NCBI GenBank assembly: GCA_025060715.1
Contig: JANXBG010000002.1
Location: 11,294 to 75,293, forward strand
Reading direction: 5' to 3'
Length of the DNA: 64,000 nucleotides
Source: a candidate division WOR-3 bacterium
Lineage (GTDB): Bacteria; Hydrothermota; Tepidihabitantia; Tepidihabitantales; DTDR01
The translations under genes were made by a program, and so were the position numbers. The first letter of the stretch is position 1; each line of letters opens with the position of its first letter. The notes below the pieces were generated by a model that was not told where the DNA came from, made no database searches, and was given only the letters and a program-made list of their open reading frames with translations. Shown piece by piece: positions 1,043 through 53,178 of the stretch.

Positions 1043-1060
1043 TTAAAAAGGAGGTTTTGA

Positions 1061-2293: not shown

Positions 2294-5247
<2,954 letters not shown>

Positions 5248-18521: not shown

Positions 18522-18589
18522 TATACCTCCTTGATGTAAAGAAACATTTTTTATTATAAATTAAAAATATTTTTATGTCAACAATAAGG

Positions 18590-19669: not shown

Positions 19670-19689
19670 TCCAAATTATATTTATTAAA

Positions 19690-19789
19690 TTGAAAAAAAT
19701 CAATAAATAATAATTTGCCGAGGGCGAGACGGAGGGAGTGTAAGGTCAAGAGGGGAAGGAGGGATGAAAATCCCGCCCTCGGCAAATTA
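19690..19789 (-). terminator. Long-stem hairpin followed by a U-run downstream of clpB (intrinsic-terminator-like, unusually large loop)
   Basis: Perfect 16-bp inverted repeat taatttgccgagggcg (19711-19726) / cgccctcggcaaatta (19774-19789) overlapping the clpB stop codon; 47-nt loop; on the minus strand it is followed by AUUAUUUAUUGAUUUUUUUC. Confidence 0.5.
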
Positions 19790-22342
19790 CTCTTTTTTAA
19801 ACTTTATTTCTCCACCTTCCAAATAAGCCACTATTTTTTTCGGCTTCTCATCCAAAAGTAATTTTGCTAAAGGATTTTCTAAAAGCCTTTGAATAGTCCT
19901 TTTTAGAGGCCGAGCACCAAATTCCTTATCAAACCCCTCATCGGCAATCTTATCCTTTACCTTCTCTTCTACCTCTAAAACCACACCCATTTCTCTTAAT
20001 CTAATTTTAAGTAAATTTAATTGAATGTCAATAATCTTTTTTATATCTGAATAAGATAGAGGGTTAAAAACCACTATCTCGTCAATTCGATTAAGAAACT
20101 CGGGACGAAAATTCTTTTTTAATAATAGTAATAATTCTTGTTTACTTACCCTTCCTTCTCTGATAAGTTCAGTTCCTAAATTAGAAGTCATAATAATTAT
20201 AGTATTTTTAAAATCAACGGTCCTCCCGTGACCATCGGTAAGCCTTCCGTCATCCAAAATTTGTAAAAAGATATTAAAAACATCCGAATGGGCTTTTTCA
20301 ATCTCATCAAAGAGAATAACCGAATAAGGTCTTTTTCTCACTGCTTCGGTTAACTGACCACCTTCTTCATAACCAACATAACCCGGAGGCGCGCCAATCA
20401 ACCGGGAAACCGTATGCTTTTCCATATACTCTGACATATCAATCCTTATCATCGCATCTTCACTATCAAAAAGAACAGCAGCTAAACTTCTTGCTAATTC
20501 GGTCTTTCCCACACCCGTTGGACCTAAGAAAAGAAAAGAACCAATTGGCCTTTTCTCCTCTTTTAGACCAACTCTTGCTCTTCTTATCGCATCGCAAACC
20601 AACCTAACCGCCTCATTTTGATTAACTAACCTTTGATGAATATAATCTTCTAATTTCTTTAACTTTTCTTTTTCCGATTCTAAAAGTTTTGTCACCGGAA
20701 TACCTGTCCAAGAAGAAACCACTTCGGCAATATCTTCACTGTTAACCACTTCTCTTAATAACCTCTTCCCATCTTTATCAAGTTTTTCTATCTCTTCTTC
20801 TAAATTTCTTAACTCTTTTTCTAATTTTGTTAATCTTCCATATTTCAATTCTGCTGCTCGATTTAAATCATAAACCCTTTCTGCCTTCTCAATCTCCTTT
20901 TTAGTTTTTTCAATCTCTTCCTTTATCTTACTCACTTGGTTAATAATCTCGCGCTCCTTTTGCCATTTTTCTTCCAATTCTTGTTTCTCTTTCCTTAACT
21001 TTGTTAATTCCTCTTCAATTGCCTTTAACCTCTCTTTTGCTTCTTTATCCTCTTCTGATTGAAGAGAAATCCTTTCCATATCCAATTGCCAAATCTTTCG
21101 TTCAATCTCATCAATCTTTTTTGGCTTGGAAGTAATTTCCATTTTTAACTTCGCTGCTGCTTCATCTACTAAATCAATTGCTTTGTCAGGCAAAAATCTA
21201 TCCGAAATATATCTTTTTGATAAAACTGCTGCTGCCACTAATGCTGAGTCACTTATCTTCACTCCGTGATGAACTTCATATCTTTCTTTTAATCCTCTTA
21301 AAATTGAAATTGTCTCCTCTACCGAAGGTTCATTAACAAAAACAGGTTGAAATCTTCTTTCTAAAGCCTTATCTTTTTCAATATATTTCCGATATTCCTG
21401 AACAGTGGTAGCACCAATACATCTCAATTCTCCCCGCGCTAACATTGGTTTTAAAATGTTTGCTGCATCAATGGCTCCCTCTGCGGCACCAGCACCAACA
21501 ACCGTATGCACCTCATCAATAAAAAGAATAATCCTACCCTCTTCTTCCTTAATCTCTTTCAATACCGCCTTTAAACGGTTTTCAAACTCTCCCCGATATT
21601 TTGTACCGGCAATTAATGCTCCCATATCCAAAGCAAAAATTCTTGTATCCTTTAATTTTTCTGGCACATCCCCTTTCACAATCCTTTGAGCAAGCCCTTC
21701 CACAATTGCTGTTTTACCCACACCCGCTTCGCCAATCAAAACCGGATTATTCTTTGTCCTTCTTGATAATATCTGTATAACCCTTCTTATCTCCTCATCC
21801 CGACCAATCACCGGATCTAATTTCCCTTCCTTGGCCATTTCAGTTAAATCTCTACCAAATTTTGCTAAGGCTTCATAAGTCTCTTCAGCATCCGGTGAGG
21901 TAATCCGCTGATGACCCCTTATATCTTTTAAACCATTTAAAAATGACTCAATTGTTAAATTATAATTTCGAAATAAGTTTTTTAAAGAAGAAGTTTCCAG
22001 TAAGGCAAGAAAAAGATGCTCAGTTCCCGCATACTCATCTTTCATCTGTTTCGACCACTCTAACGCCTTATCTAAAACCCTTTTCGTCTCATAAGCAAGA
22101 TAAACATTTGTTGAATACTCTATTACTGGTTCCCTTGCCAAAAGATTTTCTACATCTTCTTTAAAGCTTTTTAAATTTATTCCAATTTTTTTAAGGATTT
22201 TAAAAACCACCCCTTCCTCTTCTGTTAACAACGAAAAAAGAATATGGATAGGTTTTATTTCTGGATTTTTCTTTTCTTCAGCAAGCTCCTTTGCTTTAAT
22301 TATTGCCTCTTGGGCTTTTTGAGTAAATTTCTCTAATAACAT
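19787..22342 (-). CDS. clpB: ATP-dependent chaperone ClpB (two AAA+ modules with coiled-coil middle domain)
   Basis: Clp N-domain, two Walker A sites ([16 protein letters not shown]), long coiled-coil M-domain between them; 851 aa. Confidence 0.9.
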
Positions 22343-22391
22343 TTAAACCTCCAATTTATTAGATACCCAAAAAAGAATTAAGATTTAAAAA

Positions 22392-24056
22392 TTATTCTAA
22401 ACTTTTTAATATTTGTATGCCTTCCTTTGCAACTTTTTTAACTTCGCCATCTTCTTTAGAAAAAGGCCAGGGTCGGGCAATTTTTTTTAAAAGAGGTAGG
22501 GCTTCTTTATCTTTTAATTTTATTAAAGAATTAATTACCTCAATTTTTACTATTGATTCTTCAGAATTTATTGCCTTTCTTAAAATATCAACAGCTCTTT
22601 TGCCCCCAATTTCGGAAATTGCCCAAATTGCCTTTCTTTTTACACTTGTCTCGGGATCTTCAAGCATTTTAATAATTTCTTCAAAAACTTCATCTGCCCT
22701 TAATATTCCTAAAACCTCTAAGGCAGTTGCACGAACAATTGCTAACTCATCTTTTAAAAGCTCTAACATTGTGTTTATAATCTCCTTTCTTTTTTCAATT
22801 GGCGGCAAAGCAACTATTTTGCTGATTGCCAAAGCAGAATGAAATCTAACCAAAGAATTCCGCTCTTTACAAATTTCTAACAAAACTTCAATACTTTCTT
22901 TATTCTTAATATCGCCAAGAATCTCAATAATTTTTATTCTTTTCTCCTCCTCTTTAATTTTTATCAATTCATTAAGCAAAATATTAACGCTTTTTTCACC
23001 CAATTTAGTTAAAGCCCTTTTTGCTAAATCAGCAATTGTTGAATTTGGCGAAGATAATAAATCAAGAAGATAGGAACAGGTTTTCTCACTTTTAATATTT
23101 GCTAAAGCATTTACCGCTGCTATTCGCACATTAATATCTCGGTCATTAAAAAGATTTGCTAAACCTTCAATTGCCCTTTCGTCACCAATTTTTCCTAAGA
23201 TTTCACAAATACAGGTTTTTAAGACAATACTGGGATTATTTAAAAGAGATAATAAAGGATATAAAACAATCTTGCCTTCTTTTATTAATATCTCCATTGC
23301 CTTTAATCTTTTATTTAAATCATCACTCATTAAGGCATTAAGATAAGGAGAAATAATAGCTTCACCAATCATTGTCAATGCTTTAATTGCTGCCTCGCGA
23401 ACAATTTCGGATTCATCATATAAAGAGATATAGGCAAGGGCTTCGCCAGCTTTCTTATCCCCAATCTTTCCTAAAGCTTCACAAGCGGAACTTCTTACCC
23501 AATGGCTTTCATCCTTTAATTTTTCTAAAAGATGAGGAAGGGCTTTCTCATCACCAATCTCACCTAAAGCTGCACAGGCACAGGCTCTTACCCAAAAGTT
23601 GAGATCATAAAGTAATGGAAAGATATTTTCTATTGCCTTTTTGCTTTTCAAAATCCCTAAAGCTTCACAAGCGGAAGTTTTTATTAAAGGGTCTTCATCT
23701 TTTAACAGTTCAATCAAAATATCTTCACTCTCCTTTGCCTCTAATCGGGCTAATAATTGACAAAATATTCTAATTACGGGCTTTTCTATTTTTTTACTTT
23801 CTAAACTTTTTACCTTTTCTCTTTCAATTTTTAACATCTCTAAGATATAAGGCACTACCCTTTTTCCTATTTTCAAAAGTTCTTCGTTGATCTTCTCTCT
23901 AATAATTGTGTTTGTCTCCCTTGCCAAAGTTTCTAGTAAAAGAAAAATTGCCGGTGCTGTTTTCAGAAAGGCCAATTCTTCTATCGCCTTTAATCTTTTA
24001 CTTATTTCTGGATGGAAAAGTTCCCTCTTCAGCCTCTCAATATCATCCATATCCAA
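22392..24056 (-). CDS. HEAT / PBS-lyase repeat protein
   Basis: Many tandem repeats of the form ...ALGEIGDEKALPHLLEKLKDESHWVRSSACEALGKIGD... typical of PBS-lyase HEAT-like repeats; 554 aa. Confidence 0.7.
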   Translation of the reverse strand: MDMDDIERLKRELFHPEISKRLKAIEELAFLKTAPAIFLLLETLARETNTIIREKINEELLKIGKRVVPYILEMLKIEREKVKSLESKKIEKPVIRIFCQLLARLEAKESEDILIELLKDEDPLIKTSACEALGILKSKKAIENIFPLLYDLNFWVRACACAALGEIGDEKALPHLLEKLKDESHWVRSSACEALGKIGDKKAGEALAYISLYDESEIVREAAIKALTMIGEAIISPYLNALMSDDLNKRLKAMEILIKEGKIVLYPLLSLLNNPSIVLKTCICEILGKIGDERAIEGLANLFNDRDINVRIAAVNALANIKSEKTCSYLLDLLSSPNSTIADLAKRALTKLGEKSVNILLNELIKIKEEEKRIKIIEILGDIKNKESIEVLLEICKERNSLVRFHSALAISKIVALPPIEKRKEIINTMLELLKDELAIVRATALEVLGILRADEVFEEIIKMLEDPETSVKRKAIWAISEIGGKRAVDILRKAINSEESIVKIEVINSLIKLKDKEALPLLKKIARPWPFSKEDGEVKKVAKEGIQILKSLE

Positions 24057-31505: not shown

Positions 31506-33581
31506 TCAGATTTTAATTATTTTACCATTTACTTTATAACCCTTTTCATTTATCAAAAGAAAATAAATCCCCTTTTTAAAATTTGCCATCTCCTTTAAAA
31601 AAACCTTTTCCTTTTCAATTCTTTTTTTGTAAATTAAATTCCCTTTTAAGTCATAAACTTTTAAAAGAAAAGAGGAGTTCTTCGGCAAATCAAATATAAG
31701 GGTATTATTTTTTGAAAAAGGATTAGATAAAGAGATAATATGAGCATAATCCAAAACTTCAAAACTAAAAAATTCACTACCTAAACCTCTGTTGCCATAT
31801 TTATCAACGGGAATAATCAAAAGATAATATTTTCCTTTTTTTAAATGATAAAAAGTATAATTGGTATCGTTAAAAATCTTAAATTCCTTTAAGTTTTTAA
31901 AGCTAATAACCTTTATTTCATCAATAAAAACACCTAAGTAAGTAATTGAGGAATCGGTTTGATAGCGAAACCTTAAATAATAACTTCCCTGAGGTAAAAG
32001 GATTTTTATCTCTTCAAAATAATTACTCTTGCCGTAAAAGGAATCTAATTTTTGAAAATTAACCTTATCAAAAGAATATTCTAAATAAAATATATCCCTT
32101 TTAATTCTATTTAAATAACTCTCCTCAGTAGAATAGAGCAAATCAAAGACTAATAAACCACCTTCTTCTAAATTTATTTTCTCTTTGGTTATTAGACAAT
32201 TATTTAATAAAAGGCCTTCATTAGAATAAAAGGAATTACCCTTTTTAGCAAATTTTCTTGACAAAGAAAAACCGTAATTTTCCCAGAGAGCAAAATCTTC
32301 ACAGGAATCATAAAAAATTGTATCAAAAGAGTTAAAAAGATATAGATAATAATTAATTTCACTCAAATCAAAAGATTTAGAAAAATTTATAAAAATATTA
32401 TTTCTTTTTCTTTCTATTTTTATCTTTTTTACTATTTCAGGTCTTATATCATCTAAGGAATAATATTCGTTTAAAAATTCCAACCACTTTACTTCTCTTT
32501 GAAATTCTAATAAAGCGTATTCTTTTATATATTTTTTAAAGCCAAAATAATAATAGGGGAAAAATATTGCTAAACCTTCTCCCTTTTTATAAAACTCTGT
32601 TTTCTTTATACTGATTATTGAGGAAAATATTTTATTTTCAAAATTTAATTCTTTTAAAAGATGGAAAAAATCAATGTGAGAAGCAAAAGAATCTTCTATT
32701 TCAAAAAAGGGATAGGTCTGAATTTTATTTCTTATTAGAGAGAGAAGAGGCTTTTTTTCTTTTAAAAAAGAGAAAGCTTTTTTATATTCCTTTTTTAATA
32801 TGTTTAAATCAATGGCAGAAAAAACTCCTTCTTCTTTTCTTTCTTTTATATTTTTTAAATTATTTTCGGCCCAAATTTCAGAAAGTTCCTTTATTTTTAT
32901 ATCTGGATTTTCTTCAATTTTTTTTATTAAACTTTTGTAATCCCACGCTGAAATTGGTAAAATACTGGGAGAAGCAAAAAGATAATCACAATCATCAAAT
33001 ATTTCAAAACAGATTTCTACCATTCCCATTAAACAGACATCAAAACCAAGAATTTTTATTTTTCTTTTAAGAATTTCCTTGGCTTTTTTAACAAACTCCC
33101 TTAATCCACCACCGGCAACCGAGAGAGAACTACGATCTGTTTCATCATACAAAAATGCCCGATTTAAACTTTGATACCAGCCATTACCGTGGCTATAAAA
33201 TATTAAAAAGTAATTCTCGCTTTCGTAATTTTCTTTAATATACCTTAGAAAATCACTAAAAAAATTTATTTCCGCAATATTAACCTCCGGTAATTTTCTT
33301 TTTAATTCAATATTTCCATTATTTAATTCATAAATTTTGGGAAAAGGGGAAGTATCATAAAAGGCATTATCTATTAAAATTATTGTTCTTACTTTTTTGT
33401 TATATCCCAAATTGGTTAATTTTAAAATCTCTTGATAACCAGCATTAGATAAGTCATTATCGCAAGCAAAATATAAAATAATTGTCCATTTTGATTTTCC
33501 AAAAAGAAGAGATATAAAAATAAGAAAGAGAAATAATTTTTTCATAAAATAAAAATGGGGGTTGATTGGCTCAACCCCCAA
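31506..33581 (-). CDS. Secreted clostripain-like (peptidase C11) cysteine protease with T9SS C-terminal sorting domain
   Basis: Signal peptide; ILYFACDNDL, YSHGNGW (catalytic His region) and LGFDVCLMGMVE (catalytic Cys region) resemble family C11; C-terminus VYDLKGNLIYKK...GIYFLLINEKGYKVNGKIIKI matches the T9SS C-terminal domain. Confidence 0.6.
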   Translation of the reverse strand: MGVEPINPHFYFMKKLFLFLIFISLLFGKSKWTIILYFACDNDLSNAGYQEILKLTNLGYNKKVRTIILIDNAFYDTSPFPKIYELNNGNIELKRKLPEVNIAEINFFSDFLRYIKENYESENYFLIFYSHGNGWYQSLNRAFLYDETDRSSLSVAGGGLREFVKKAKEILKRKIKILGFDVCLMGMVEICFEIFDDCDYLFASPSILPISAWDYKSLIKKIEENPDIKIKELSEIWAENNLKNIKERKEEGVFSAIDLNILKKEYKKAFSFLKEKKPLLSLIRNKIQTYPFFEIEDSFASHIDFFHLLKELNFENKIFSSIISIKKTEFYKKGEGLAIFFPYYYFGFKKYIKEYALLEFQREVKWLEFLNEYYSLDDIRPEIVKKIKIERKRNNIFINFSKSFDLSEINYYLYLFNSFDTIFYDSCEDFALWENYGFSLSRKFAKKGNSFYSNEGLLLNNCLITKEKINLEEGGLLVFDLLYSTEESYLNRIKRDIFYLEYSFDKVNFQKLDSFYGKSNYFEEIKILLPQGSYYLRFRYQTDSSITYLGVFIDEIKVISFKNLKEFKIFNDTNYTFYHLKKGKYYLLIIPVDKYGNRGLGSEFFSFEVLDYAHIISLSNPFSKNNTLIFDLPKNSSFLLKVYDLKGNLIYKKRIEKEKVFLKEMANFKKGIYFLLINEKGYKVNGKIIKI

Positions 33582-33605
33582 AAGCCTTCCTTTTTTTATA
33601 TATTA

Positions 33606-34637
33606 TTAAAAGACAAAACTCACACTTACCCGGTGGGAGCCAAGGAGATAATGGTGATGACGATAACTATAGTCAATTTGAAATTCCATACCATTTATCA
33701 ATTTACTCTTAACTCCTAAACCACCTGAAAGACCTGTGGTCCAATGAATTTGATTACGATATTCACTATCGGTATTTAAAATATAACCTCCCCGAATAAA
33801 AAAGAGATTGCCAAGAAGATATTCAAAACCAATATTAAAGGTCTCATTAATATCATTATAATGGACTAAATCGGTGCAGAGAGTAAGGCGCGAATTAGCA
33901 GTAGAGATTAAATCGGCTGCAAGACCAAATCTAAAGGTTGTTGGTATTGGTACCGGTGTAGCAACATTAGAAATAGGTATCTCTTTTCCAGTTTTTTCAT
34001 CTCTTTCAATCCTTCTTAATCTACCACCAGTAAAAACAATTTCTGGTCCATAGTTATTAATTGCTACCCCAATTCTTAAGTTATGAAAACCGGTGTTGAA
34101 ATGGAATCCAACATCAAAAGCAAAAGTGCTTGCCGACATATCCCAAATTCTTTCTTGAATTCCCTTTACACCAATACCGATTGACAATTTTTCAGTAAAA
34201 TAACGGGCAAAACTCATTCCGACAGCCATTCCCGAAGCACTAAAACGTAAACCGGTGCCTTCGTCCTCTCTTTGATAAGTGTATAAAGAATCAATTTGTG
34301 TTTCCATCATACTTCCCATTGTTAAAGCGATTACTGAAAAGCCGAAATTACCAATCACACCGGCAGGAATAACAGCACTCAGGTATTCGTGAGAAACATC
34401 GGCAATCCAATCAATATGATTAAAGAAAACTACTCTTTTTGTCAAAAGAGATAAGCCACTAGGATTATAAAAAGTAGCAGTAGCGTCATCACAAAGGGCA
34501 ACAAAAGAAGAACCCATACCACTTGCCCGACCAACATCAATCTTTAACCAGGAAGCACCCGTAGTCCCTCTCTTATCAAAAGCACCAAAAACAAAGGTTA
34601 TTATTAAAATAGTTATTAATAGTAATTTAACTCTCAT
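33606..34637 (-). CDS. PorV/PorQ-family T9SS-associated outer-membrane beta-barrel protein (paralog of 27377..28285)
   Basis: GASWLKIDVGRASGMGSSFVALCDDATATFYNPSGLS motif; signal peptide; ends with F. Confidence 0.6.
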   Translation of the reverse strand: MRVKLLLITILIITFVFGAFDKRGTTGASWLKIDVGRASGMGSSFVALCDDATATFYNPSGLSLLTKRVVFFNHIDWIADVSHEYLSAVIPAGVIGNFGFSVIALTMGSMMETQIDSLYTYQREDEGTGLRFSASGMAVGMSFARYFTEKLSIGIGVKGIQERIWDMSASTFAFDVGFHFNTGFHNLRIGVAINNYGPEIVFTGGRLRRIERDEKTGKEIPISNVATPVPIPTTFRFGLAADLISTANSRLTLCTDLVHYNDINETFNIGFEYLLGNLFFIRGGYILNTDSEYRNQIHWTTGLSGGLGVKSKLINGMEFQIDYSYRHHHYLLGSHRVSVSFVF

Positions 34638-34647
34638 CTTATCCTCC

Positions 34648-37596
34648 TTACATTATGATGGCAAATTTACCAATCTGTTTACCGTATTTAGAATCCACAT
34701 GAAAGATATAGACACCGCTAGCAACCTTCTGATTGTGCTGATTTAACAGATTCCATTCAGCTGTACCGCCAAATTTATTATTTTTAGTTCCCTTTTCCGA
34801 AGACTTATGTTCAATTATCTTCACTAAATCACCAGCCAAATTGAAAATTCTAATAACGCATTCATCAGGTAAATTCACAAATTGTAATCTTCTTGCCAAA
34901 GTTGTCTTTTCCCACTTATTAGTAATAATATAAGGATTAGGCACCACTTTCACATTCAATTTTTGACCTGCCATATCAGTAAATCTCATTGCGGTGGTAG
35001 TTATTATAAATTTGTTATAAGAAGGAGCTGTACCATAAGTTTTATTAGAATAGATATACCAAGTATCGCCAGGCTGTATCATCTGTTTAATTTGAGGATT
35101 TATCGGTCCACCTTTTCTAATTTGGATATAACCACCAGGTATATAAATATAAAATTCATTATTTCTTAAGGTATCGGATGCACGAGTGGTGATAGCAGTT
35201 CCGTTTAGAAAAGCCCAACAATTACCATATCCAACTCGCCACATATTAAAGAGAGAATCATATTTTACTTCTACTTTATTAGTCAAATCATAAACCTCTT
35301 TTAATGTTAATCCGCCTTCTGGTTTTCTTCCCCAAACAAGCCGATAATCAGAACCGCGAAATGCCCAAGCAACTTTTAAAAAAGGTTGTCTATCTAATGT
35401 CAATAATTTCAACGATTCAGCTGGATAATTTCCATTAACATTCTTAATCTCCACATTAACAAAAGGTTCAGGTTTTGCAGAATCTAATTCCATTGTAAAT
35501 ACTAAGTTTGTTCCATCAAAGGAAGGAAAATAGAATTTCTCTTTTTTACCCAAGGTATAAGGTATTTGGCAAGTTACCAATGTTTCGCTGTAATCTAATT
35601 TAGTAATTATCGCTTGATAAATTGGTTGAGTATCTATTAAATTACATATCGGATCAAGGAAGGTTAAAAGATATTGAGTATCTTTTGTTAAATAAGGAGC
35701 GGTAAAGATAACATCAAATTTAAACTTATTATTGAGGCTATCTCCGATAAGCATTTTTATTTCTGAAGAGGGTTTTTGATAATTAGCTACCTCTTTTCTT
35801 GGTGTCACTTCAATTGCTTGGATTCCGCTTTCTAATATTAAAGTTTTTCCCCAAGTTTTATTATAATCAAAAGAAGTTACTGCATAATAATAAGTATATC
35901 CATTAATCACACTGTCATCCACATAATAGTAGAAAGTTCCTTTATCGTTTGCCCAGACAAAAATACTTTCTGAATAGACAGTATCTCCTCTGATAATCTC
36001 CGTTTTCTTAAAAGTATCGGCATATTTAATACCGTTTTTCAAATCGCAAATGGCTTTGAGTTCCCATTCAACTCCGTCAAGGGATTTATAAATTTTATAA
36101 CCTTCAAAATCATATTCCCGATAAGTTGTATCACCAGCTAATTGAGCAATTCTGTAATAGGGGTCAGGAATTTTCTCCATTCTATTATCCCAAGATAAAA
36201 TTACCCGATTATCTTGGGGCATAGCGGTTACAACCGGTGGGAAGGGAGGAGCAGGTAATAACCAGTTTTTATCATAACATCTTTGAGCTTCAGCACTTAC
36301 TCTTGCTAAATCCCAAGTATCTCTTTGATTAAAGGGTTGTCCCTCTTCTCCGTATTTTGCTGCAATCACAGCAACCACCAAGGTCGCTATTGAATCGGGT
36401 GGTAAATCAAAAGGACCTGTAGATTGTAAAAACCTTTTATCTCCGGGTGTTTCGTCAATATTATCATACGGCTTATATTCTCGGGTAGCAATCTGATAGC
36501 CAGCCAACGTCAAATATTTTTCAACATCTGTTTTTGGGTCTTGCTCAAGAGTAAACATCTTACAACTGGTCATTCCTAATTGTTCAATTTCAGAAAAGTC
36601 TCGCCAAGCAGGAATGTTATCATTATCACTATCTCTTAATAGTGTGTCAGGAAGACCACAAATGTAGGCACTATCAATTTCTTGTAAATCAATTAAACCA
36701 TCTTCATCGTTATCTTTATTATCTTTTAAGGCATAAGGACTTTGTAAAAAGTCATAAGCAACTGCTCCAGGAACTCCTCTTTCCCAAAGCGTGCCGGGTG
36801 ATTCACGATTATCACTATCATAAATCCAAGCAAGATTATCCACAAAAATAGAATCGTTACCTTTTTTAATATATTTTCTTGGCGTTCTTCTCTCGTCAAG
36901 AACCATTGCCATCATATCATCCCGATAATACCCCACATCTCCATCCAAAACTACTCCGAGATACATATTTTTCAAAGTATCTCCTGAAACATTTTTTATT
37001 TCGTATTTCAAAAAGAAAATATCCCGATTAGAAGGTAAGTTCCAATGATAACCAGTTAAATAAACATCCACACCAATTGGTTTTGTGTCACCTGGTTTAT
37101 GGGCTGGTAAGTGGGCATCGGAAAAACAACACCAAACATCCATACCCGAAACAGTATCTTGGGGTGCCATTGGAAACTTATCTTTTGGGGGTGGCCATTT
37201 ATCAGGAAAATAATAGATACAATCATCGGCAGTTCCCGTAGAGCCATCATATCTTGAATGGATTACTGGCCACAATTCACTGGCACCAGAATTGGGATCA
37301 TATCCACAGGAAACTAATGTCTCACCTTGGGGAGAAATTGCGCCAATCCAAATTCCGGCACCAAAGATATAGAAATTTCTTAAAGGTCTTGGCCAAGAAC
37401 CACCAGCTGCACCCGTTCCACCTCCTCCGGTAGCATCAAATCCAAATCTACCATCATTGTGAAGAGGATAACGCCAGCGGTTGTATTCAATCCATTTTTG
37501 CTCAAAGACTTTTTTTCCTGAATTAGAGGTAAATGTCTTTGCAAAAAGAAGAGTGATGGAAAAGAGTATTAAAATAGCTATTAATTTCTTATACAT
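34648..37596 (-). CDS. Large (982 aa) secreted protein of unknown function with T9SS C-terminal sorting domain
   Basis: Signal peptide; C-terminus KVVPNPYIITNKWEK...IRIFNLAGDLVKIIEH...SGVYIFHVDSKYGKQIGKFAIIM matches the T9SS C-terminal domain pattern. Confidence 0.65.
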   Translation of the reverse strand: MYKKLIAILILFSITLLFAKTFTSNSGKKVFEQKWIEYNRWRYPLHNDGRFGFDATGGGGTGAAGGSWPRPLRNFYIFGAGIWIGAISPQGETLVSCGYDPNSGASELWPVIHSRYDGSTGTADDCIYYFPDKWPPPKDKFPMAPQDTVSGMDVWCCFSDAHLPAHKPGDTKPIGVDVYLTGYHWNLPSNRDIFFLKYEIKNVSGDTLKNMYLGVVLDGDVGYYRDDMMAMVLDERRTPRKYIKKGNDSIFVDNLAWIYDSDNRESPGTLWERGVPGAVAYDFLQSPYALKDNKDNDEDGLIDLQEIDSAYICGLPDTLLRDSDNDNIPAWRDFSEIEQLGMTSCKMFTLEQDPKTDVEKYLTLAGYQIATREYKPYDNIDETPGDKRFLQSTGPFDLPPDSIATLVVAVIAAKYGEEGQPFNQRDTWDLARVSAEAQRCYDKNWLLPAPPFPPVVTAMPQDNRVILSWDNRMEKIPDPYYRIAQLAGDTTYREYDFEGYKIYKSLDGVEWELKAICDLKNGIKYADTFKKTEIIRGDTVYSESIFVWANDKGTFYYYVDDSVINGYTYYYAVTSFDYNKTWGKTLILESGIQAIEVTPRKEVANYQKPSSEIKMLIGDSLNNKFKFDVIFTAPYLTKDTQYLLTFLDPICNLIDTQPIYQAIITKLDYSETLVTCQIPYTLGKKEKFYFPSFDGTNLVFTMELDSAKPEPFVNVEIKNVNGNYPAESLKLLTLDRQPFLKVAWAFRGSDYRLVWGRKPEGGLTLKEVYDLTNKVEVKYDSLFNMWRVGYGNCWAFLNGTAITTRASDTLRNNEFYIYIPGGYIQIRKGGPINPQIKQMIQPGDTWYIYSNKTYGTAPSYNKFIITTTAMRFTDMAGQKLNVKVVPNPYIITNKWEKTTLARRLQFVNLPDECVIRIFNLAGDLVKIIEHKSSEKGTKNNKFGGTAEWNLLNQHNQKVASGVYIFHVDSKYGKQIGKFAIIM

Positions 37597-37607
37597 TTTT
37601 CCTCCCT

Positions 37608-40343
37608 TTAAAATCCCAAACCAATACCAATTCTTACCCTTCTTGGGGGTCCAAAATTGGCTGGGTTATTTATCAAATCATTCCTTGCTGCTATATAAGA
37701 CTCAAACCTTTCTTTTTGAGAAATCCAACCATCATGATTAAAATCTCTTGCTGGATGATAACCTGCGTCACCAGGAATTTGACCAAAACTAAATTGACCA
37801 ATATAAAATTGTTGTCCATCCCAATCTGGAGCACCGGTTGCTGAATACACATTTGTAACATTTAAACGATTAGTAACATTTAAAATATCACAGAAAAGGG
37901 ATAATTTCAAACCACCAATATTAATATCCTTTGATAATCGGGCATCAATATTCCAAGTTGCTGGCATTCTTGCTGAATTTAAATCACCAATTCTTGTTCC
38001 TCGGATATCCGTCGGTGTATATGGGAAACCACTACCAAAATTGAAAATAATGCCGATATCAAAGTTTCTTAAAGGCAAAAAGACAAAATCGCTTGGAAAA
38101 GAAAGACCTAAATCTAAATTAACTACATGTCTTTGGTCATAATCCAAGTAATAATCAATTTGGGTAAAAGGAATACCTTGGTAGTTATAAGTATACCATT
38201 GCCAAGCCTCAGCAGCAGTTCCTTTGGCAATTTGGAAAGTATAAGCAAGTTTTCCATTCCAATAATTGGAAAGCCTTTTTTGTAAACCAACCTCAAAACC
38301 AAAAACCCTTCCGTATTCCACATTAACAACCTTTGTATAACCCATTGGTAAAGCAGGAACTCCTCTTGTGCCTACTAAGTCATAGATATCTTTATAGAAT
38401 AAAGTCAAATCAGCACCCCAGAAATCATTTATTTGCCATTCTAAACCACTTTCGTAAGCAACCGTTTTTTGAGCATTTAAATCAGGATTTCCAACAATTA
38501 TATTTCCTCTTTGAATAATATCGGCAAATAGACTTTCATAAAGATGGGTAAAAGTTGGTGATTGGAAGAAATGACCATAAGAAAATCTAAACTTCATCCT
38601 TTCGGTAACTGGGAAACTAATTCCTATTCTTGGTGAAATCTTATATTTTGGTTTTGCTTCAGTAGTTGTCGTATCTAACACATTAGTGCCATCTTCACCA
38701 TATTTACGATATCTTGATTTTGGATGCAACATATCAAACCGCAAACCTGCTCTAACAACTAAATCACCAAAATCGGCACGGTCTTGAATATAATAAGCAA
38801 GAGAATAAGGATATTTCTTATAGGCATCCCAGAAAGGATTGGATGACCAAGGTAAAGAGTTTTCTAATAGCCATAATGAATAGAATTTTGCTTCAAAACC
38901 TGTCTTAATCTCATGGATTTTTCTATAAACATATGTGAAATCTCCTTTGAAATTATAGGTTTTTGATTGACGATAATGCCAAAGTCGATAGTCACCATAA
39001 CAGTAAAATAGACCATTTACTCCCCAAGGGTTGTTGTCCGAATAATTATATTCTGTCCATTTAGCTACAGTATCTTTCCATAATAAAAGGATAGCCTTCT
39101 CTGGATTGGTATCTTTAAGTACAAAATCTTCCGATTTAAAGCGATATAAATCCCATAACCCAAGTTTTTCTAAAATATGAGATTTATCCCGTTTCTGGTA
39201 TTCTTTATCTCTTACGGTTTGTAAGCGGTCATAATAATGATATCCCGCTTTTAAGTCTAAAATCATATTATCTTTTAACATTGTATTAAAATTAATCGCT
39301 AACTGATCGCCAAAACTTCTAACCGCTCCAAAACGGTCAAGCCAATATTTCCAACTATTTGACCAAAATTGCCATTGATAACAAGCGGTATAATAAGAGA
39401 TAGAAAATTTAGACTTGGGTAATTTATAAGATATCTTAATATCACCAGTATACTCTTCTCTTGGCTTCTGAAGTTTATATTTTGTTGGGCTGGCATCTTC
39501 TGTTCGCATTAATTCACCAGAAATAGCATAACGCAATCTTTTAGTAAAAAGAGGACCGCTTAAAGAAAATTGATAAAAATTATAACCAAAATCTAATGCT
39601 TTTGAAGGCAAATAATCATCTGAAGTATATCTTAAAACTCCCGAATGTTTTTCTCCGCCTTCTTTTTTAATAATCTGGACAACACCCGACATTGCTTCAC
39701 CATACTCAGCATCAAAACCACCAGTAATAATTGAAACTTCGGAAACAGCTGCGGAAGGAGGTCGGTGATAGGCAATTTGATAAAAGGGATCAACAGCTGA
39801 GATTCCATCAACTAAAGTTAATACTTCATCATACCTACCACCACGCACATGAGCAAATCCACCCCGAGTAACCACTCCTGCTTGAAGATTGACCAATTGA
39901 GTCACAATGGTTAATGGCAATCTCTTTAATTCCTCTTCACCCGCAATTCTTGTTGTTTGAACTGCAGTTTTAATAACCATTGGTCTTTCGGCAGTAACCT
40001 CTACCGGTTTTTCAATTTCAATCACTGTTGGTTTTAATTGAAAATCAACATAAGTAGTCTGGTCCACAATCACCTTCACACCTTTAACCCTTACCGGTTC
40101 ATAACCAACATAAGAGGCAGTAACGTCATAAGTACCAACCGGAACATTAATAATTAAATAATGTCCAGTAGCATCAGTAGCCGCTCCTAATTCAGTCCCC
40201 TCAACAATTACATTTACACCTACTAAAGGCTCTTTCGTATTAGCATCAATAACCCTTCCAGCAATTTTTCCTGTTTCACCAGCATAGGCGGTATAAGAAA
40301 AAAATACCGCCAGTATTAAAATAATTTTTAAAAGGCTTCGCAT
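37608..40343 (-). CDS. TonB-dependent outer-membrane receptor-like protein with N-terminal carboxypeptidase-regulatory-like domain (SusC/RagA-like architecture)
   Basis: Signal peptide; CarbopepD_reg-like GKIAGRVIDANTKEPLVGVNVIVEGTELGAATDATGHYLIINVPVGTYDV; plug region; 911 aa beta-barrel ending ...GIGLGF. Confidence 0.65.
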   Translation of the reverse strand: MRSLLKIILILAVFFSYTAYAGETGKIAGRVIDANTKEPLVGVNVIVEGTELGAATDATGHYLIINVPVGTYDVTASYVGYEPVRVKGVKVIVDQTTYVDFQLKPTVIEIEKPVEVTAERPMVIKTAVQTTRIAGEEELKRLPLTIVTQLVNLQAGVVTRGGFAHVRGGRYDEVLTLVDGISAVDPFYQIAYHRPPSAAVSEVSIITGGFDAEYGEAMSGVVQIIKKEGGEKHSGVLRYTSDDYLPSKALDFGYNFYQFSLSGPLFTKRLRYAISGELMRTEDASPTKYKLQKPREEYTGDIKISYKLPKSKFSISYYTACYQWQFWSNSWKYWLDRFGAVRSFGDQLAINFNTMLKDNMILDLKAGYHYYDRLQTVRDKEYQKRDKSHILEKLGLWDLYRFKSEDFVLKDTNPEKAILLLWKDTVAKWTEYNYSDNNPWGVNGLFYCYGDYRLWHYRQSKTYNFKGDFTYVYRKIHEIKTGFEAKFYSLWLLENSLPWSSNPFWDAYKKYPYSLAYYIQDRADFGDLVVRAGLRFDMLHPKSRYRKYGEDGTNVLDTTTTEAKPKYKISPRIGISFPVTERMKFRFSYGHFFQSPTFTHLYESLFADIIQRGNIIVGNPDLNAQKTVAYESGLEWQINDFWGADLTLFYKDIYDLVGTRGVPALPMGYTKVVNVEYGRVFGFEVGLQKRLSNYWNGKLAYTFQIAKGTAAEAWQWYTYNYQGIPFTQIDYYLDYDQRHVVNLDLGLSFPSDFVFLPLRNFDIGIIFNFGSGFPYTPTDIRGTRIGDLNSARMPATWNIDARLSKDINIGGLKLSLFCDILNVTNRLNVTNVYSATGAPDWDGQQFYIGQFSFGQIPGDAGYHPARDFNHDGWISQKERFESYIAARNDLINNPANFGPPRRVRIGIGLGF

Positions 40344-40355
40344 CTTTCCCTCCTT

Positions 40356-41390
40356 TTATTTAACTCTTGTTGCAATTCCCCAAATAATTGCCCTCGGTTC
40401 TTTTTTAATATGAGTTAAAGCTTCATAAGTAATACCTTCAACATAAAACCGATTAAAACCTTCAGGCAGAACAAATTTTTTAGAAGACAAAATTCTTTGC
40501 CATTTTTTAGTTTCTTTATCTTTATAATAAACAAAAGTATAAACCGAATCAGCAGGATCTAGCCAATAAGGACAACTAACCTGTAAAGAATCTGTTGGTA
40601 AATATAAAAGAGAATCCTTTTTCTCGCAACTTACCTCTTCAACATAGAAAAGTCTTCTATTAGAAAATTTTAAAGAACAGGATAAATCCCGACTTCTCTG
40701 ATATTCTAATTGAAAAACAGTGCAAGTTTTTGTAGGTGAAGAGATAACCACCCCAAAGAAGCCGCCAGCTTGGTCAAAAAATATCGGTGCCTTCTCAGCA
40801 TCTGGTGAAGAAATTATTTGACAACCAGAGATCTTTTTTAACTTCCACACTCTTGGCTCGGTATCTTTTTTTATTGGTTCAAAAAAGGCTACTTGCCAAG
40901 AAATACCATTAAAGGGTTTTACAATAAGGGTCTCCTTTGCCACAAAATAACTAGCATAATAACCACTATCGGGCAAATAGGGGGTTACAGAATCGGTAAG
41001 GATGTATAAAGAATCTCTAAACTCTCTAATTAAATAAACATGACAAGTAGTATCTTTAATGAAAATAATATTAAAAGAATCCCTTTGATTTATCTTCTTT
41101 CTCCCAAAGGCTTTAGGAAAGAATTTCATAAAAGGTCTGTCCATCTTTAAAAGGGTGTCTAAATATCTACCTTTTTTAAGCTCTACCCCTACTAAAAAAT
41201 TCCCCCTACCAAACATTGTGTCTTCAAAAAGCGGAAGCGCTAATACTTCGTTTGTAAGAAGTTCCTTAATTGCTGCTGAGTCTTTTCCGTCACCCGCAAA
41301 GAAAGGCGGTGGTGGTTCATTTCCACAGGATAGAAAAAGTAATAAAATAATTCCAATTATTCCACTAAAAACTGTTAGCTTTGCTTTCAT
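40356..41390 (-). CDS. Hypothetical lipoprotein
   Basis: Signal peptide ending in a lipobox-like LSCG; no recognisable domain; 12 nt upstream of the TonB-dependent-receptor-like gene. Confidence 0.5.
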   Translation of the reverse strand: MKAKLTVFSGIIGIILLLFLSCGNEPPPPFFAGDGKDSAAIKELLTNEVLALPLFEDTMFGRGNFLVGVELKKGRYLDTLLKMDRPFMKFFPKAFGRKKINQRDSFNIIFIKDTTCHVYLIREFRDSLYILTDSVTPYLPDSGYYASYFVAKETLIVKPFNGISWQVAFFEPIKKDTEPRVWKLKKISGCQIISSPDAEKAPIFFDQAGGFFGVVISSPTKTCTVFQLEYQRSRDLSCSLKFSNRRLFYVEEVSCEKKDSLLYLPTDSLQVSCPYWLDPADSVYTFVYYKDKETKKWQRILSSKKFVLPEGFNRFYVEGITYEALTHIKKEPRAIIWGIATRVK

Positions 41391-41462
41391 AACTAAATCC
41401 TCCTTTTTGTATAATTAATGTTGTTTTTTTTATTAATCCCATATCTATTTTTCTTATTTTAA

Positions 41463-41852
41463 TTATTCCATTTTAAAAGTCAATAATATAGTTTTAAATT
41501 TTTGTGATGACAGAACTTTAAATCCTTTCTTTTGAGCATAACTACTTATTTTCCTATCCGAAGAAATTACTGTATAACGGGTAATATCTTTTGTGTTTTC
41601 TAAAATATTGATAATTGCTAAATCAGCATCTTTAACATAAGAAACTTTTAAATAATCACTCTTAAATCTAATAGGTAGCAACGAAACCAAAGGAACATTT
41701 TTCACATCAAAAAAGATTTGGGCTTTCTTTTTCTTTGTCTCACAATAATCTTTTATAAGAAAAATTATCTCCTCCCGATAATAACTTATTTTATTCCCAT
41801 CAATATTTTTATAAAATTGATACAAAAGATTATAACCATCAATAAGATACAT
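41463..41852 (-). CDS. NYN/PIN-like domain protein (YacP-like)
   Basis: N-terminus MYLIDGYNLLYQF typical of YacP/NYN-domain proteins; 129 aa. Confidence 0.55.
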   Translation of the reverse strand: MYLIDGYNLLYQFYKNIDGNKISYYREEIIFLIKDYCETKKKKAQIFFDVKNVPLVSLLPIRFKSDYLKVSYVKDADLAIINILENTKDITRYTVISSDRKISSYAQKKGFKVLSSQKFKTILLTFKME

Positions 41853-51002: not shown

Positions 51003-51571
51003 TGAATTTTTTTGAAGTTATCAATTCCCGCCATTCAGTAAGAAATTTCTCTGAAAAAGATGTGGAAGAGGAAAAGATAAAAAAAATCTTAGAAGCTGCC
51101 CAAAAAGCACCTTCCTGGCAAAATCGCCAACCCTGGTATTTTATTGTTGTTAAAGATAAAGAGTTAATTAAGAAGATTTCTGAATTCCGTCCTTTAACAT
51201 TAAATATTAATATCTTTTTAAAAAAGGCACCAGTTATTATTATTTTAGTTTCAAAAAGGGAATTATCCGGAAGTCGGGCTGGGCTTGATTATTTTTTAGT
51301 AGATTGTGCCATTGCCATGGAGCATTTGATATTAGCTGCTACTGCTTTAGGTTTAGGAACCTGTTGGATTGGTGCTTTTGATGAAGAATATTTAAAAGAG
51401 ATTTTAAAAATACCAAAGGATTTTCGAATTATTGCTCTAACACCTCTTGGCTACCCAAAAAAAGAAAATCTTTTAGGAAAGGCAATAAAAACCTTTGCCC
51501 AAAGTAAAAAAAGAAAAGAATTAAAAGATTTTGTCTTCTTAAATGAGTGGGGAAAGAAATGGGAACTTTAA
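51002..51571 (+). CDS. Nitroreductase-family protein
   Basis: MNFFEVINSRHSVRNF...APSWQNRQPWYFIVV typical of the nitroreductase fold N-terminus; start overlaps lepB stop (TAATG). Confidence 0.75.
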   Translation: MNFFEVINSRHSVRNFSEKDVEEEKIKKILEAAQKAPSWQNRQPWYFIVVKDKELIKKISEFRPLTLNINIFLKKAPVIIILVSKRELSGSRAGLDYFLVDCAIAMEHLILAATALGLGTCWIGAFDEEYLKEILKIPKDFRIIALTPLGYPKKENLLGKAIKTFAQSKKRKELKDFVFLNEWGKKWEL

Positions 51572-53178
51572 TAATTTTTTTAATATTTAATACTAAAATA
51601 ATGGATTTAGATAGCCTAAAACCAAAGATGAAAGGTTATGGACTTTCTACTTTTTCTGGTATTTTACCTGATACTTTTGAATGTGAAATTATTGATATTA
51701 TAAGAAATGTTGAACCAAAAAGAAATTTAATTATTGCTAAATTGGCAAAACAAAATTTGGAAAAAAGTGGAGTTGTTGCTGGTATGTCTGGAAGCCCAGT
51801 ATTCATTAATAATAAATTAATTGGAGCAGTTGCGTATTCTTGGGAATTTCAGAAAGAGCCAATCTGTGGAATTACCCCAATTTATGAAATGCTTTATCCC
51901 GAAAGTTTTCCTAAAGGAGGAAATTTACCAGTAAGGAATTTTACTTTACCAATTGCTTTAAGTGGCAATTTGGATGAAAAAGCAACAACCCTTTTTAAAC
52001 AATTATTTCCCAAAAATATTACCCTCTTATTTTTACCAATGGGAGGAAGTGAAAAAAAGGAAAAAGAAATTTTACCTTCCTTTGGCTATGCAGTAGGCGT
52101 TAATATTATTGACGGCGATTTAAAAGCAGCAGCTATTGGTACATTAACTTATATAAATAAAGATACTATATACGCTTTTGGCCATCCTTTATTTAATTTT
52201 GGCGAAGTAGAACTACCATTAACTTTAGGAAAAATCCATTGTGTAATGCCGGCCTATGACCTTTCTTTTAAACTCTTTTCACCTATAAAGGAAATTGGCA
52301 TTATTAATTACGATTACCAAACAGCAATTAAAGGTCTTTTAAATAAAAAAGCAAAAAAAATTCCAGTAAGAATAAAAATTAAGGATAATAATAAAAAAGA
52401 AATTTATACCTACGAAGTTTGTAACCATTATAAATTAATCCCTTTCCTATTGCCGATTTGTTATTCTTTCTCCTATTACTCTTTTGCTTTGGGGAGACCT
52501 CTCAATTATACCATTAAAAATAAAATAAAATTAAGGCTCTCTTCAAAAGATAAAAAAGAAGAATTTGTTTATGAAAAAATAACTATATCCGATGAACCAA
52601 AAAGTTGGGAAATTTACGATTTCTATAATGAATTAAAAACTATCTTAGAAAACCCTTTAGAAAAAGTAGAAATAGAAAATTGTGAAATAGAAAGCGAATT
52701 TTTGCAAGAAAAAAGGGCAGCAAAAATTTTAAATATAAGTTTAAATAAAACCACCTTTCAACCAAAGGATGAAATGAAAATAAATATAACTTTACAAGAT
52801 TTTGAAGGGAAAATTTTTGATAAAGAGATAATTTTAAAAATTGATTTATCCCCTTCCCAATACTTTCTTTTTATTGGCAACCCTGATGAGTTATTTTCTA
52901 TTTTTCCATTAAGAGAAGAAAGGTCTTTTTTAAAATTATTAGAAAATATTAAAAAAGGGAAAAAAGGGAATTTATTAAAATTGGCAATCTATTCTCAAAC
53001 AAAAGGAATAATTTTAAAAGACTTAGGATATTCTCTGCCTTTATCGTTAAGAAGATTAAAAGAAAAAAGTCTTTCCGAAATTTCTTCTTTTACTATTTAT
53101 TATGAAAAAGAAGAATTATCCGATTATTTTATCACTAACTCCAAAACTCTCATTTTTGAAGTTAAGGAGGAAAAATGA
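51547..53178 (+). CDS. SpoIVB-like peptidase S55 domain protein
   Basis: MKGYGLSTFSGILPDTFECEIIDII and VAGMSGSPVFINNKLIGAVAYSW (GxSGSP serine-protease box as in SpoIVB/S55); about 400 aa C-terminal extension of unknown function. Confidence 0.6.
   Translation: MGKEMGTLIIFLIFNTKIMDLDSLKPKMKGYGLSTFSGILPDTFECEIIDIIRNVEPKRNLIIAKLAKQNLEKSGVVAGMSGSPVFINNKLIGAVAYSWEFQKEPICGITPIYEMLYPESFPKGGNLPVRNFTLPIALSGNLDEKATTLFKQLFPKNITLLFLPMGGSEKKEKEILPSFGYAVGVNIIDGDLKAAAIGTLTYINKDTIYAFGHPLFNFGEVELPLTLGKIHCVMPAYDLSFKLFSPIKEIGIINYDYQTAIKGLLNKKAKKIPVRIKIKDNNKKEIYTYEVCNHYKLIPFLLPICYSFSYYSFALGRPLNYTIKNKIKLRLSSKDKKEEFVYEKITISDEPKSWEIYDFYNELKTILENPLEKVEIENCEIESEFLQEKRAAKILNISLNKTTFQPKDEMKINITLQDFEGKIFDKEIILKIDLSPSQYFLFIGNPDELFSIFPLREERSFLKLLENIKKGKKGNLLKLAIYSQTKGIILKDLGYSLPLSLRRLKEKSLSEISSFTIYYEKEELSDYFITNSKTLIFEVKEEK

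Follow-up and report, generated by a model that had tools for sequence, protein, structure and literature searches.

Polysaccharide-utilisation loci (PULs) of the Bacteroidota, such as the Sus operon (SusC/SusD plus SusE/F/G), are recognised by their SusC/SusD pairs, and PULDB, for example, defines a PUL of this phylum by an adjacent susC/susD pair. In Porphyromonas gingivalis, as Madej and colleagues are said to have described in 2020, a cysteine protease of clan CD that a type IX secretion system (T9SS) exports reportedly makes peptides outside the cell, which are imported by a TonB-dependent transporter (TBDT) with a surface partner (gingipains and RagAB). In the PorZ-PorQ and PorU-PorV pairs, a large surface protein with an unremoved C-terminal domain (CTD) is kept on the outer membrane by its cognate barrel, which is PorV-like and has 14 strands (PMC10202324). 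For Melioribacter roseus, a 'sus operon' (Mros0759-0763) was described, the outer-membrane genes of which were named SusC, SusD and SusE and for which a Sus-like role was proposed (Kadnikov et al., 2013; PMC3534657), and in Myxococcus xanthus the TBDT Oar is required for secretion of the protease PopC (PMC6434023). Here, we analysed a stretch of 64,000 nucleotides (nt) from a candidate division WOR-3 bacterium (contig JANXBG010000002.1, positions 11,294 to 75,293 of the forward strand), which is called the window throughout and carries a cassette of outer-membrane, T9SS-related and protease genes at positions 31506-41390.

An earlier reading of the letters of this DNA (the original prediction) had proposed a minus-strand run of five genes, and the listing of open reading frames (ORFs) bore out five consecutive ORFs on this strand. 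They encode a lipoprotein of 344 amino acids (aa; gene 1, 40356-41390), a 911-aa TonB-dependent receptor (TBDR; gene 2, 37608-40343), a 982-aa secreted protein of an unnamed family with a T9SS-type CTD (gene 3, 34648-37596), a 343-aa FadL-like outer-membrane barrel of the PorV/PorQ family (gene 4, 33606-34637) and a 679-aa C11 protease with CTD (gene 5, 31506-33545 when read from its ATG; a TTG alternative is located at 33581). A database copy of gene 3 with 100% identity belongs to a WOR-3 metagenome-assembled genome (MAG). With moderate confidence, we read the locus as a T9SS-coupled, TonB-dependent nutrient-acquisition locus, which would be a functional counterpart of the Bacteroidota PUL built from different parts.

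The evidence for this reading comes mainly from the conservation of three genes, namely the TBDR (gene 2), the CTD protein of about 1000 aa (gene 3) and the PorV/Q barrel (gene 4), which we refer to as the trio; in WOR-3, gene 1 extends it to a quartet. A scan of the GTDB species representatives confirmed 591 loci. Synteny was tested on 87 loci (denoted by L numbers) by phmmer with the window proteins, and a locus was counted as judgeable when enough flanking sequence was present. We found the TBDR directly upstream of gene 3 in 67 of the 71 judgeable loci and the barrel directly downstream of it in 68 of 72. The complete trio, in the same order and on the same strand, was present in 56 of the 60 loci that could be judged on both sides, and it covers at least eight lineages of the Fibrobacterota-Chlorobiota-Bacteroidota (FCB) group. 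Its carriers are WOR-3, Stahlbacteria, KSB1, Latescibacterota, Edwardsbacteria, Ignavibacteriota (including Melioribacter), Calditrichota, Marinimicrobia and Rhodothermales, and the orthologues of gene 2 scored 290-880 bits. The exceptions (L015, 9716-12769; L024, 9833-12169; L032, 9929-11287; L028) comprise one orphan full-length copy of gene 3, next to which neither a TBDR nor a PorV-like gene lies, and three partial relatives, which are shorter and have other surroundings. Complete WOR-3 chromosomes hold two of these three; in the complete WOR-3 genomes CP070834.1 and CP070680.1, for example, nothing but partial relatives was seen. A SusD/RagB domain was detected neither in the five window proteins nor among gene 3 homologues from other phyla, and the neighbours that were scanned in L034 and L049 had none either; the locus of the window lacks an adjacent susC/susD pair. 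The search for five-gene synteny in related MAGs, which had been suggested as a check, returned the arrangement in the window's own clade and only there. Thus, the trio is the ancient part and the five-gene synteny is limited to one clade; judged from these comparisons, the conserved unit is the trio (the quartet in WOR-3) and not the five genes, and the protease is a clade-specific accessory. The original idea of a non-canonical PUL logic is largely supported by the comparative loci lacking SusD, provided that it is transferred from the five genes to this smaller unit.

The genes around the trio carry the second part of the argument. The density of CTD genes reaches 2.66 per 10 kb within 2 kb of the trio compared with 0.5-0.8 per 10 kb farther away, and in 41 of 68 complete trios a CTD gene lies at a distance of 300 nt or less. 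When we tallied the Pfam domains of 63 CTD neighbours, carbohydrate-binding modules (CBMs) and glycoside hydrolases (GHs) were the top functional domains after the CTD itself and FlgD_ig. These two classes make up the CTD neighbours outside WOR-3, and in Ignavibacteriota they include amylases, GH16, GH10 and CBMs. In an Ignavibacteriaceae locus (L034), the gene order comprises a histidine kinase, a sigma54 regulator, a sodium:solute symporter (SSF), CBM9 with CTD, the trio, GH16 with malectin domain and CTD, GH3 without CTD, and GH5 with CBM6 and CTD. The Melioribacter locus (L049) contains GH31, GH13 without CTD, a SurA-like peptidyl-prolyl isomerase (PPIase), the trio, a CBM20/48/53 protein with CTD and GH13 with CTD, and L066 contributes GH10 with CTD. 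From their domain content, the Ignavibacteriota loci read like entire PULs, although a SusD-like gene was not found in them, and the trio appears to occupy the place of SusC/SusD in complete starch, beta-glucan and xylan loci of Ignavibacteriota and other FCB phyla. Since GH3, GH13 and GH31 enzymes lacking a CTD and an inner-membrane symporter share the Ignavibacteriota loci, inward import of oligomers can be argued. As a further observation, 16 loci of Ignavibacteriota, Rhodothermales and Calditrichia (for instance L037, 3481-5616; L049, 4184-5893; L035, 4155-5816; and 13 more loci) encode, directly upstream of the TBDR, a SurA-like chaperone that has two PPIase (rotamase) domains. This is a hint that, in these phyla, the module includes a periplasmic chaperone dedicated to it.

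Within WOR-3, the cargo follows the phylogeny of gene 3. In a neighbour-joining tree, the WOR-3 sequences form three clades and each of them has its own cargo type. The clade of the window is a deep one, with gene 3 identities from 35 to 78%, and 10 of 10 of its loci have the C11 protease gene as the next gene downstream of the trio. In the second clade, proteins combining a Peptidase_C39_2-like domain, LVIVD and CTD are encoded downstream, and in the third clade FlgD_ig/CTD proteins of 570-620 aa are encoded upstream. One MAG holds trios of two clades (L009, L016), and this is a PUL-like multiplicity. In related WOR-3 loci (e.g. L004, L005), ExbB-ExbD-ExbD-TonB genes precede the cassette directly, on the 5' side of the lipoprotein gene. 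In one WOR-3 clade, this stretch is more elaborate: about eight small unannotated genes (DUF6754, PatA_N and others without NCBIfam match) are followed by ExbB-ExbD-ExbD-TonB and then by the lipoprotein gene (L001, L004, L010, L013, L014, L017, L019, L023, L025; e.g. L004, 1-5856).

Gene 2 consists of an N-terminal carboxypeptidase-regulatory-like domain (PF13715, CarbopepD_reg, 71 bits), a plug (PF07715, 27.0 bits; cut-off 23.9) and a barrel (PF00593, 92.4 bits; cut-off 27), and it ends with a C-terminal Phe. With a plug and a 22-strand barrel domain above the Pfam thresholds, it belongs to the TonB-dependent receptor superfamily. Between the N-terminal domain and the plug there is a TonB-box-like VEVTAE (aa 114-119, window 39987-40004), which is a resemblance of sequence only. 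The original prediction had called the N-terminal domain of this protein SusC-like, which holds. Membership of the SusC/RagA family had to be rejected when profile annotation was carried out as suggested: TIGR04056 gave 42.3 bits compared with a cut-off of 368.25 and matched only at model positions 2-112, that is within the N-terminal domain. A PDB sequence search with gene 2 returned nothing close. Apart from the trios themselves, second copies of gene 2-type TBDRs were observed at a distance of at most 10 kb in L027 (18707-22713, minus strand), L074 (17401-20451) and L079 (8237-11110). In L027, the second TBDR is paired with a second PorV/Q-like barrel, without a gene 3 homologue. These extra copies suggest tandem or degenerate modules.

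Gene 3 starts with a signal peptide, which is followed by an N-terminal galactose-mutarotase-like supersandwich (approximately aa 30-450), by FN3/Ig-like beta domains and by the CTD. This architecture of supersandwich and Ig-like domains is taken from a predicted structure, and the supersandwich is predicted to be a fold of the carbohydrate-binding type. The CTD is type-A-like (aa 884-982, window 34651-34947) and carries the motif VVPNPY...SGVYIFHV...GKFAIIM; residues 904-980 form a C-terminal beta-sandwich in the AlphaFold2 (AF2) model. Neither TIGR04183 nor PF18962 matched it at E <= 0.01. In contrast, an ad hoc profile built from 18 neighbouring CTDs matched aa 907-980 with E = 6e-8. Thus, the assignment as T9SS substrate, which had been part of the original prediction, has the ad hoc profile, the motifs, the modelled sandwich and weak matches to the PorZ and PorU C-termini on its side, but it stays below the Pfam and TIGRFAM thresholds. 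The description as just a huge secreted cargo had to be given up, and gene 3 presents itself as a conserved core component with a supersandwich fold and its own PorV/Q barrel. Its NCBIfam matches were only weak and concerned the C-termini of PorZ and PorU; Foldseek with the model also returned PorU and PorZ, via the FN3/Ig-like domains and the C-terminal beta-sandwich. We rejected identity with PorU, since there was no Peptidase_C25 match and the score was 17.3 bits compared with 420, and identity with PorZ, for which the score was 28.7 bits compared with 260 and the two beta-propellers are missing; both matches involved C-terminal residues only. Gene 3 lacks Pfam domains, and a catalytic domain could not be recognised in it; a PDB sequence search yielded nothing close, and its homologues from other phyla could likewise not be placed in a family of Pfam or NCBIfam. 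We found over 300 full-length homologues, nearly all in WOR-3 and all labelled 'hypothetical'. When we searched 1.84 billion cluster representatives (50% identity) with a gene 3 profile, 1,881 matched at E ≤ 1e-30 and 6,153 at E ≤ 1e-10.

The identities that had been assigned to the three remaining proteins proved correct. Gene 4 matched the PorV/PorQ family model NF033709 over its entire length (positions 1-326 of 326) with 175.7 bits (cut-off 90). It scored under the equivalog cut-offs for PorQ (76.4 vs 220), PorV2 (60.4 vs 325) and PorV (47.8 vs 250), and nothing close was found in a PDB sequence search. Gene 5 is a clostripain-like Peptidase_C11 (PF03415, 103.6 bits; cut-off 25.8). Its catalytic His is located in SHGNGW (aa 118-123) and its catalytic Cys in FDVCLMG (aa 168-174), and this dyad aligns with the HG and DAC motifs (DxC) of the C11 zymogen 6mzo and of clostripain 9cip. 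The middle part consists of Ig-like domains, and the C-terminus (aa 608-678, window 31509-31724) is that of a T9SS type A cargo (TIGR04183, 27.5 bits; cut-off 23); PF18962 gave 24.4 bits, just under its cut-off of 27. Gene 1 has a lipobox (LSC|GNEPP) within a conserved CGNEPPxxF motif (aa 22-30) and matched neither Pfam nor NCBIfam, which agrees with its description as an uncharacterised lipoprotein. A word-indexed search returned 7 homologues and a profile 14. In the loci, homologues were found directly upstream of the TBDR in 22 cases, all of them from WOR-3 and nearly all with the CG(N/T)EPP lipobox motif, so that gene 1 appears to be confined to WOR-3. Structure prediction, which had also been proposed as a check, was informative for gene 3; for gene 1, the AF2 model calculated from 14 sequences reached a pLDDT of 34 and gave no usable fold.

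Inspection of the intergenic regions qualified the idea of a five-gene operon with gaps of 10-24 nt. Genes 1-4 are separated by 12, 11 and 10 nt, and each ATG is preceded at a distance of 5-7 nt by a canonical Shine-Dalgarno (SD) sequence (AAGGAGG/GGGAGG), so that this part of the proposal stands. A promoter-like site (TTGACT-16 nt-TAAAAT, minus strand, 41456-41483; 10/12 matches in a consensus scan) ends about 66 nt upstream of gene 1, but it is no evidence of function, since it was scored on a general consensus, which may not be that of WOR-3. Between gene 4 and the ATG of gene 5, we found an intrinsic-terminator-like hairpin with T-run (minus strand, 33546-33580; 10-bp stem with 6 GC pairs). 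Here, the sequence 3' of the gene 4 stop codon reads GGGGGTTGA-GCCAA-TCAACCCCC, then ATTTTTATTTT (33580-33546), and the ATG follows at 33545. Since translation from the TTG at 33581 would turn the hairpin into the first 12 codons and since a normal signal peptide (MKKLFLFLIFISLLFG) begins with the ATG, the most likely start of the protease is ATG 33545; the gap behind gene 4 is then about 60 nt instead of the 24 nt that had been assumed. A GC-rich hairpin with T-run occurs at the same position, with unrelated sequence, in L086, L087 and L003, and the relatives sharing this position have gene 3 identities of 78%, 54% and 38%. Comparison of these loci indicates that a terminator between gene 4 and the protease is a conserved feature, and because of it genes 1-4 look like a transcription unit, with the protease being expressed via read-through or on its own. 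It may be added that an SD-like GGAAGG is located directly 5' of the hairpin in the window (33546-33590, minus strand), in L086 (6040-6088) and in L087 (14030-14087; AAGGAGAG). Folding of the hairpin would place it about 14 nt from the protease ATG, and one might speculate that the element doubles as a split ribosome-binding site.

How could such a locus work? The four-gene operon would provide the outer-membrane core, consisting of the lipoprotein, the TBDR, the 982-aa CTD protein and the PorV/PorQ-type barrel. The 982-aa protein would cross the outer membrane via the T9SS, and its CTD would stay bound to the dedicated gene 4 barrel, which would retain it at the surface. This tethering next to the TBDR is proposed because PorZ-PorQ and PorU-PorV keep an uncleaved CTD on a cognate PorV-like barrel. 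At the surface, gene 3 might then partner the TBDR much as SusD or a surface glycan-binding protein would, and the adjoining genes would supply substrate-specific T9SS-secreted enzymes, so that the variable CTD neighbours may set the substrate specificity. In the clade of the window, this enzyme would be the C11 protease, expressed past a leaky terminator or from its own start. It would cut extracellular protein, and the TBDR, energised by ExbBD-TonB, would import the peptides. Since the clade neighbour is a clostripain-like protease, peptides are the likely TBDR cargo in this WOR-3 clade, and the identity of the neighbouring protease is the one ground for this assignment. The suggestion of a protein-degradation and peptide-uptake module is therefore borne out for the linkage of protease and trio, and for peptide uptake it is carried no further than this identity.

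Several observations weigh against this reading. That gene 3 interacts with gene 4 and with the TBDR is proposed by analogy only, and a trio adjoining T9SS cargo would be equally expected if its role were cargo secretion or attachment. The sugar-binding-type supersandwich fits a peptide substrate awkwardly. The terminator leaves co-transcription of the protease with genes 1-4 not assured, and ATG 33545 has no SD sequence. Moreover, scanning of the 64-kb window yielded no T9SS machinery gene (SprA/Sov, PorK/L/M/N), no peptide or oligopeptide permease and no regulator.

A broader proposal goes beyond the locus itself, and we put it forward tentatively, being more inclined to doubt than to assert it. 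TBDR, supersandwich/CTD protein and PorV/Q barrel might form one stable machine, which would be an ancestral or alternative answer of the FCB superphylum to the SusC/SusD problem. The capture partner would be delivered by the T9SS and held non-covalently by a PorV-like barrel instead of forming a lipoprotein lid, and this barrel may also be the docking site of the neighbouring CTD enzymes ('T9SS utilisome'). In WOR-3, an exchange of the cargo for cysteine proteases would have converted the machine from glycan to protein use.

The rival explanation that survives best, although we consider it unlikely, regards the trio as a cargo-specific accessory of the T9SS. Here, the neighbouring CTD enzymes would be shuttled or anchored by the barrel, with the 982-aa protein as a PorU/PorZ-like processing or attachment factor, and the TBDR-like barrel would be structural or PorF-like, so that the system would serve enzyme display and not uptake. 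The strong enrichment of CTD genes beside the trio would be explained in this way, and so would the PorV/PorQ membership of gene 4, the restriction of the NCBIfam matches of the gene 3 CTD to the C-termini of PorZ and PorU, and the SurA-like PPIase upstream in 16 loci. There are also precedents for pairs of CTD proteins and PorV-like barrels, since PorZ/PorQ, PorU/PorV and type B cargo with PorP/SprF have been described (PMC10202324). However, gene 3 has neither the C25 peptidase domain nor the PorZ-type beta-propellers and remains far below the PorZ equivalog cut-off, and the TBDR retains its plug and the TonB-box-like motif. In addition, the periplasmic-type GH3, GH13 and GH31 enzymes without CTD and the inner-membrane symporter make sense only with oligomer import, and several paralogous trios with different enzyme sets coexist per genome.

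It is highly improbable that the trio is a complex for outer-membrane biogenesis or envelope maintenance (BAM-associated, i.e. linked to the beta-barrel assembly machinery, or handling lipopolysaccharide or glycans), next to which the enzymes lie because of cargo-gene clustering. In the BAM complex of Bacteroidota, the FadL-like barrel BamG, which is bound to a surface protein, is essential (PMC12578637), the supersandwich fold also occurs in the periplasmic domain of YidC, and the SurA-like PPIase would suit such a function. In contrast, a housekeeping machine would not be expected to exist in multiple divergent copies within a genome or to be paired with particular hydrolases clade by clade, the scores of gene 4 place it in the PorV/PorQ family and not with FadL/Toluene_X, and regulators and sugar transporters are located within the same loci.

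We give even less credence to an outward-working TBDR, which would, like Oar for PopC, export the C11 protease and/or the 982-aa protein, with the PorV/Q barrel as receiving shuttle in a minimal SprA-independent route of WOR-3. The precedent is a TBDT with carboxypeptidase-regulatory-like N-terminal domain that is required for protease secretion (PMC6434023), and some WOR-3 loci do have ExbBD-TonB genes directly upstream of the cassette. No T9SS core gene is present within the window, and our literature search found nothing tying WOR-3 to the T9SS. However, phyla that are reported to have T9SS genes (PMC11285876), among them Ignavibacteriota and Rhodothermales, carry this trio as well, the locus architecture in those phyla is that of an uptake locus, and the absence of T9SS genes from 64 kb is silent on the whole genome. 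Finally, that the five genes are merely adjacent, with protease and outer-membrane genes functionally unlinked, is barely credible: a conserved terminator parts gene 4 from the protease and the fifth gene differs among the other WOR-3 clades, but the C11 gene lies directly downstream throughout its clade at widely differing gene 3 identity (10/10 loci, 35-78%), and each gene 3 clade has its own cargo type.

The remaining content of the window was also inspected. The cassette is flanked by housekeeping genes, with a convergent polA downstream and a YacP-like gene, radC, the gene of a V-ATPase D subunit and hisS upstream. Within the window we found neither exbBD/tonB genes nor tRNA or Rfam elements. 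A third CTD protein of the window (2268 aa; 11715-18521, minus strand) combines CARDB, a Kelch beta-propeller and a T9SS type A CTD, and on its 3' side lie the genes of an M23 peptidase, of ClpB and of a HEAT-repeat protein with 554 aa. This minus-strand cluster (11715-24056) was considered as a paralogous module and rejected on account of its content (HEAT-repeat protein, ClpB, M23 peptidase and CARDB/Kelch CTD protein). An M42 aminopeptidase gene (2294-3340, minus strand), a gene for a protein with S55 (SpoIVB-like) domain (51547-53178, plus strand) and one for a putative HExxH metalloprotease of the MXAN_6640 family (55179-57248, plus strand) are additional peptidase genes, which are consistent with a proteolytic lifestyle. 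Two adjacent plus-strand ORFs (8637-9911 and 10016-11713) encode an N6_Mtase domain and an Eco57I-type methylase domain, respectively, and look like a split or two-part restriction-modification enzyme of type IIG/IIL. The edge of the window (8-2293, plus strand) carries genes for a GspE/PilB-type ATPase and a GspF/PilC-type platform protein (type II secretion or type IV pilus).

If the locus indeed serves T9SS-coupled, TonB-dependent nutrient acquisition, type IX secretion would be linked directly to TonB-dependent import and PorV-like barrels would have a new role. In addition, a three-gene marker would become available for annotating nutrient-uptake loci of uncultured FCB bacteria. Trio loci appear to carry starch, beta-glucan and xylan use in Ignavibacteriota, Calditrichota, Marinimicrobia and KSB1 and protein use in WOR-3, and the trio-bearing lineages are abundant in sediments, hot springs and digesters. 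Gene 3 represents a large family for which there is no Pfam or NCBIfam model and no literature. Since PUL prediction is keyed to SusC/SusD, trio-based loci are invisible to current prediction. The idea is testable, because Melioribacter roseus is cultivable and carries the system.

When the locus is compared with the systems introduced above, Oar resembles the window TBDR in being a TBDT with carboxypeptidase-regulatory-like N-terminal domain that is tied to an extracellular protease. It differs in that Oar is not known to be linked to PorV-like barrels or CTD proteins, and for the window TBDR inward transport is more likely than outward transport. With PorZ-PorQ and PorU-PorV, the locus shares the combination of a CTD protein and a PorV-like barrel, since genes 3 and 4 lie side by side in nearly all loci and the CTD of gene 3 is similar to the CTDs of PorZ and PorU. 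In contrast to these proteins, gene 3 has no C25 domain (PorU) and no propellers (PorZ), gene 4 stays under the PorV, PorQ and PorV2 cut-offs, and the pair is preceded by a TBDR and present in several copies per genome. The closest functional parallel, drawn by analogy, would be that of gingipains and RagAB. However, RagAB is a true pair of the SusC/SusD families that is not encoded beside the gingipains, whereas in the window the protease is C11 and not C25, the transporter has other partners and all genes are located in one locus.

The 'sus operon' of M. roseus matches L049 in its enzyme content (GH31, GH13, TonB-dependent transporter, starch-binding protein and secreted amylase). L049 shows six ORFs where the numbering of the paper leaves four, so that this match is one by enzyme content and not gene by gene. 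Homology to SusD or SusE is absent from the proteins found there in L049, of which one is unclassified and another belongs to the PorV/PorQ family. As in the PULs of Bacteroidota, a TBDT with carboxypeptidase-regulatory-like N-terminal domain is encoded beside surface binding proteins and extracellular hydrolases, the Ignavibacteriota loci also hold periplasmic-type GHs, an inner-membrane symporter and a regulator, and there are several paralogous loci per genome, which differ in their enzyme sets. Unlike in these PULs, no SusD/RagB-like gene was found among the gene 3 proteins or the scanned neighbours, and the TBDR fails the SusC/RagA model. The partner is an all-beta CTD protein of about 1000 aa together with a PorV/Q barrel instead of a lipoprotein lid of tetratricopeptide repeats, and the accessory enzymes and binding proteins bear T9SS CTDs instead of lipoprotein anchors. 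Apart from the SusCDE labelling of M. roseus in 2013, our literature searches yielded no account of the trio, which looks like a widespread, undescribed alternative to the SusC/SusD uptake machinery.

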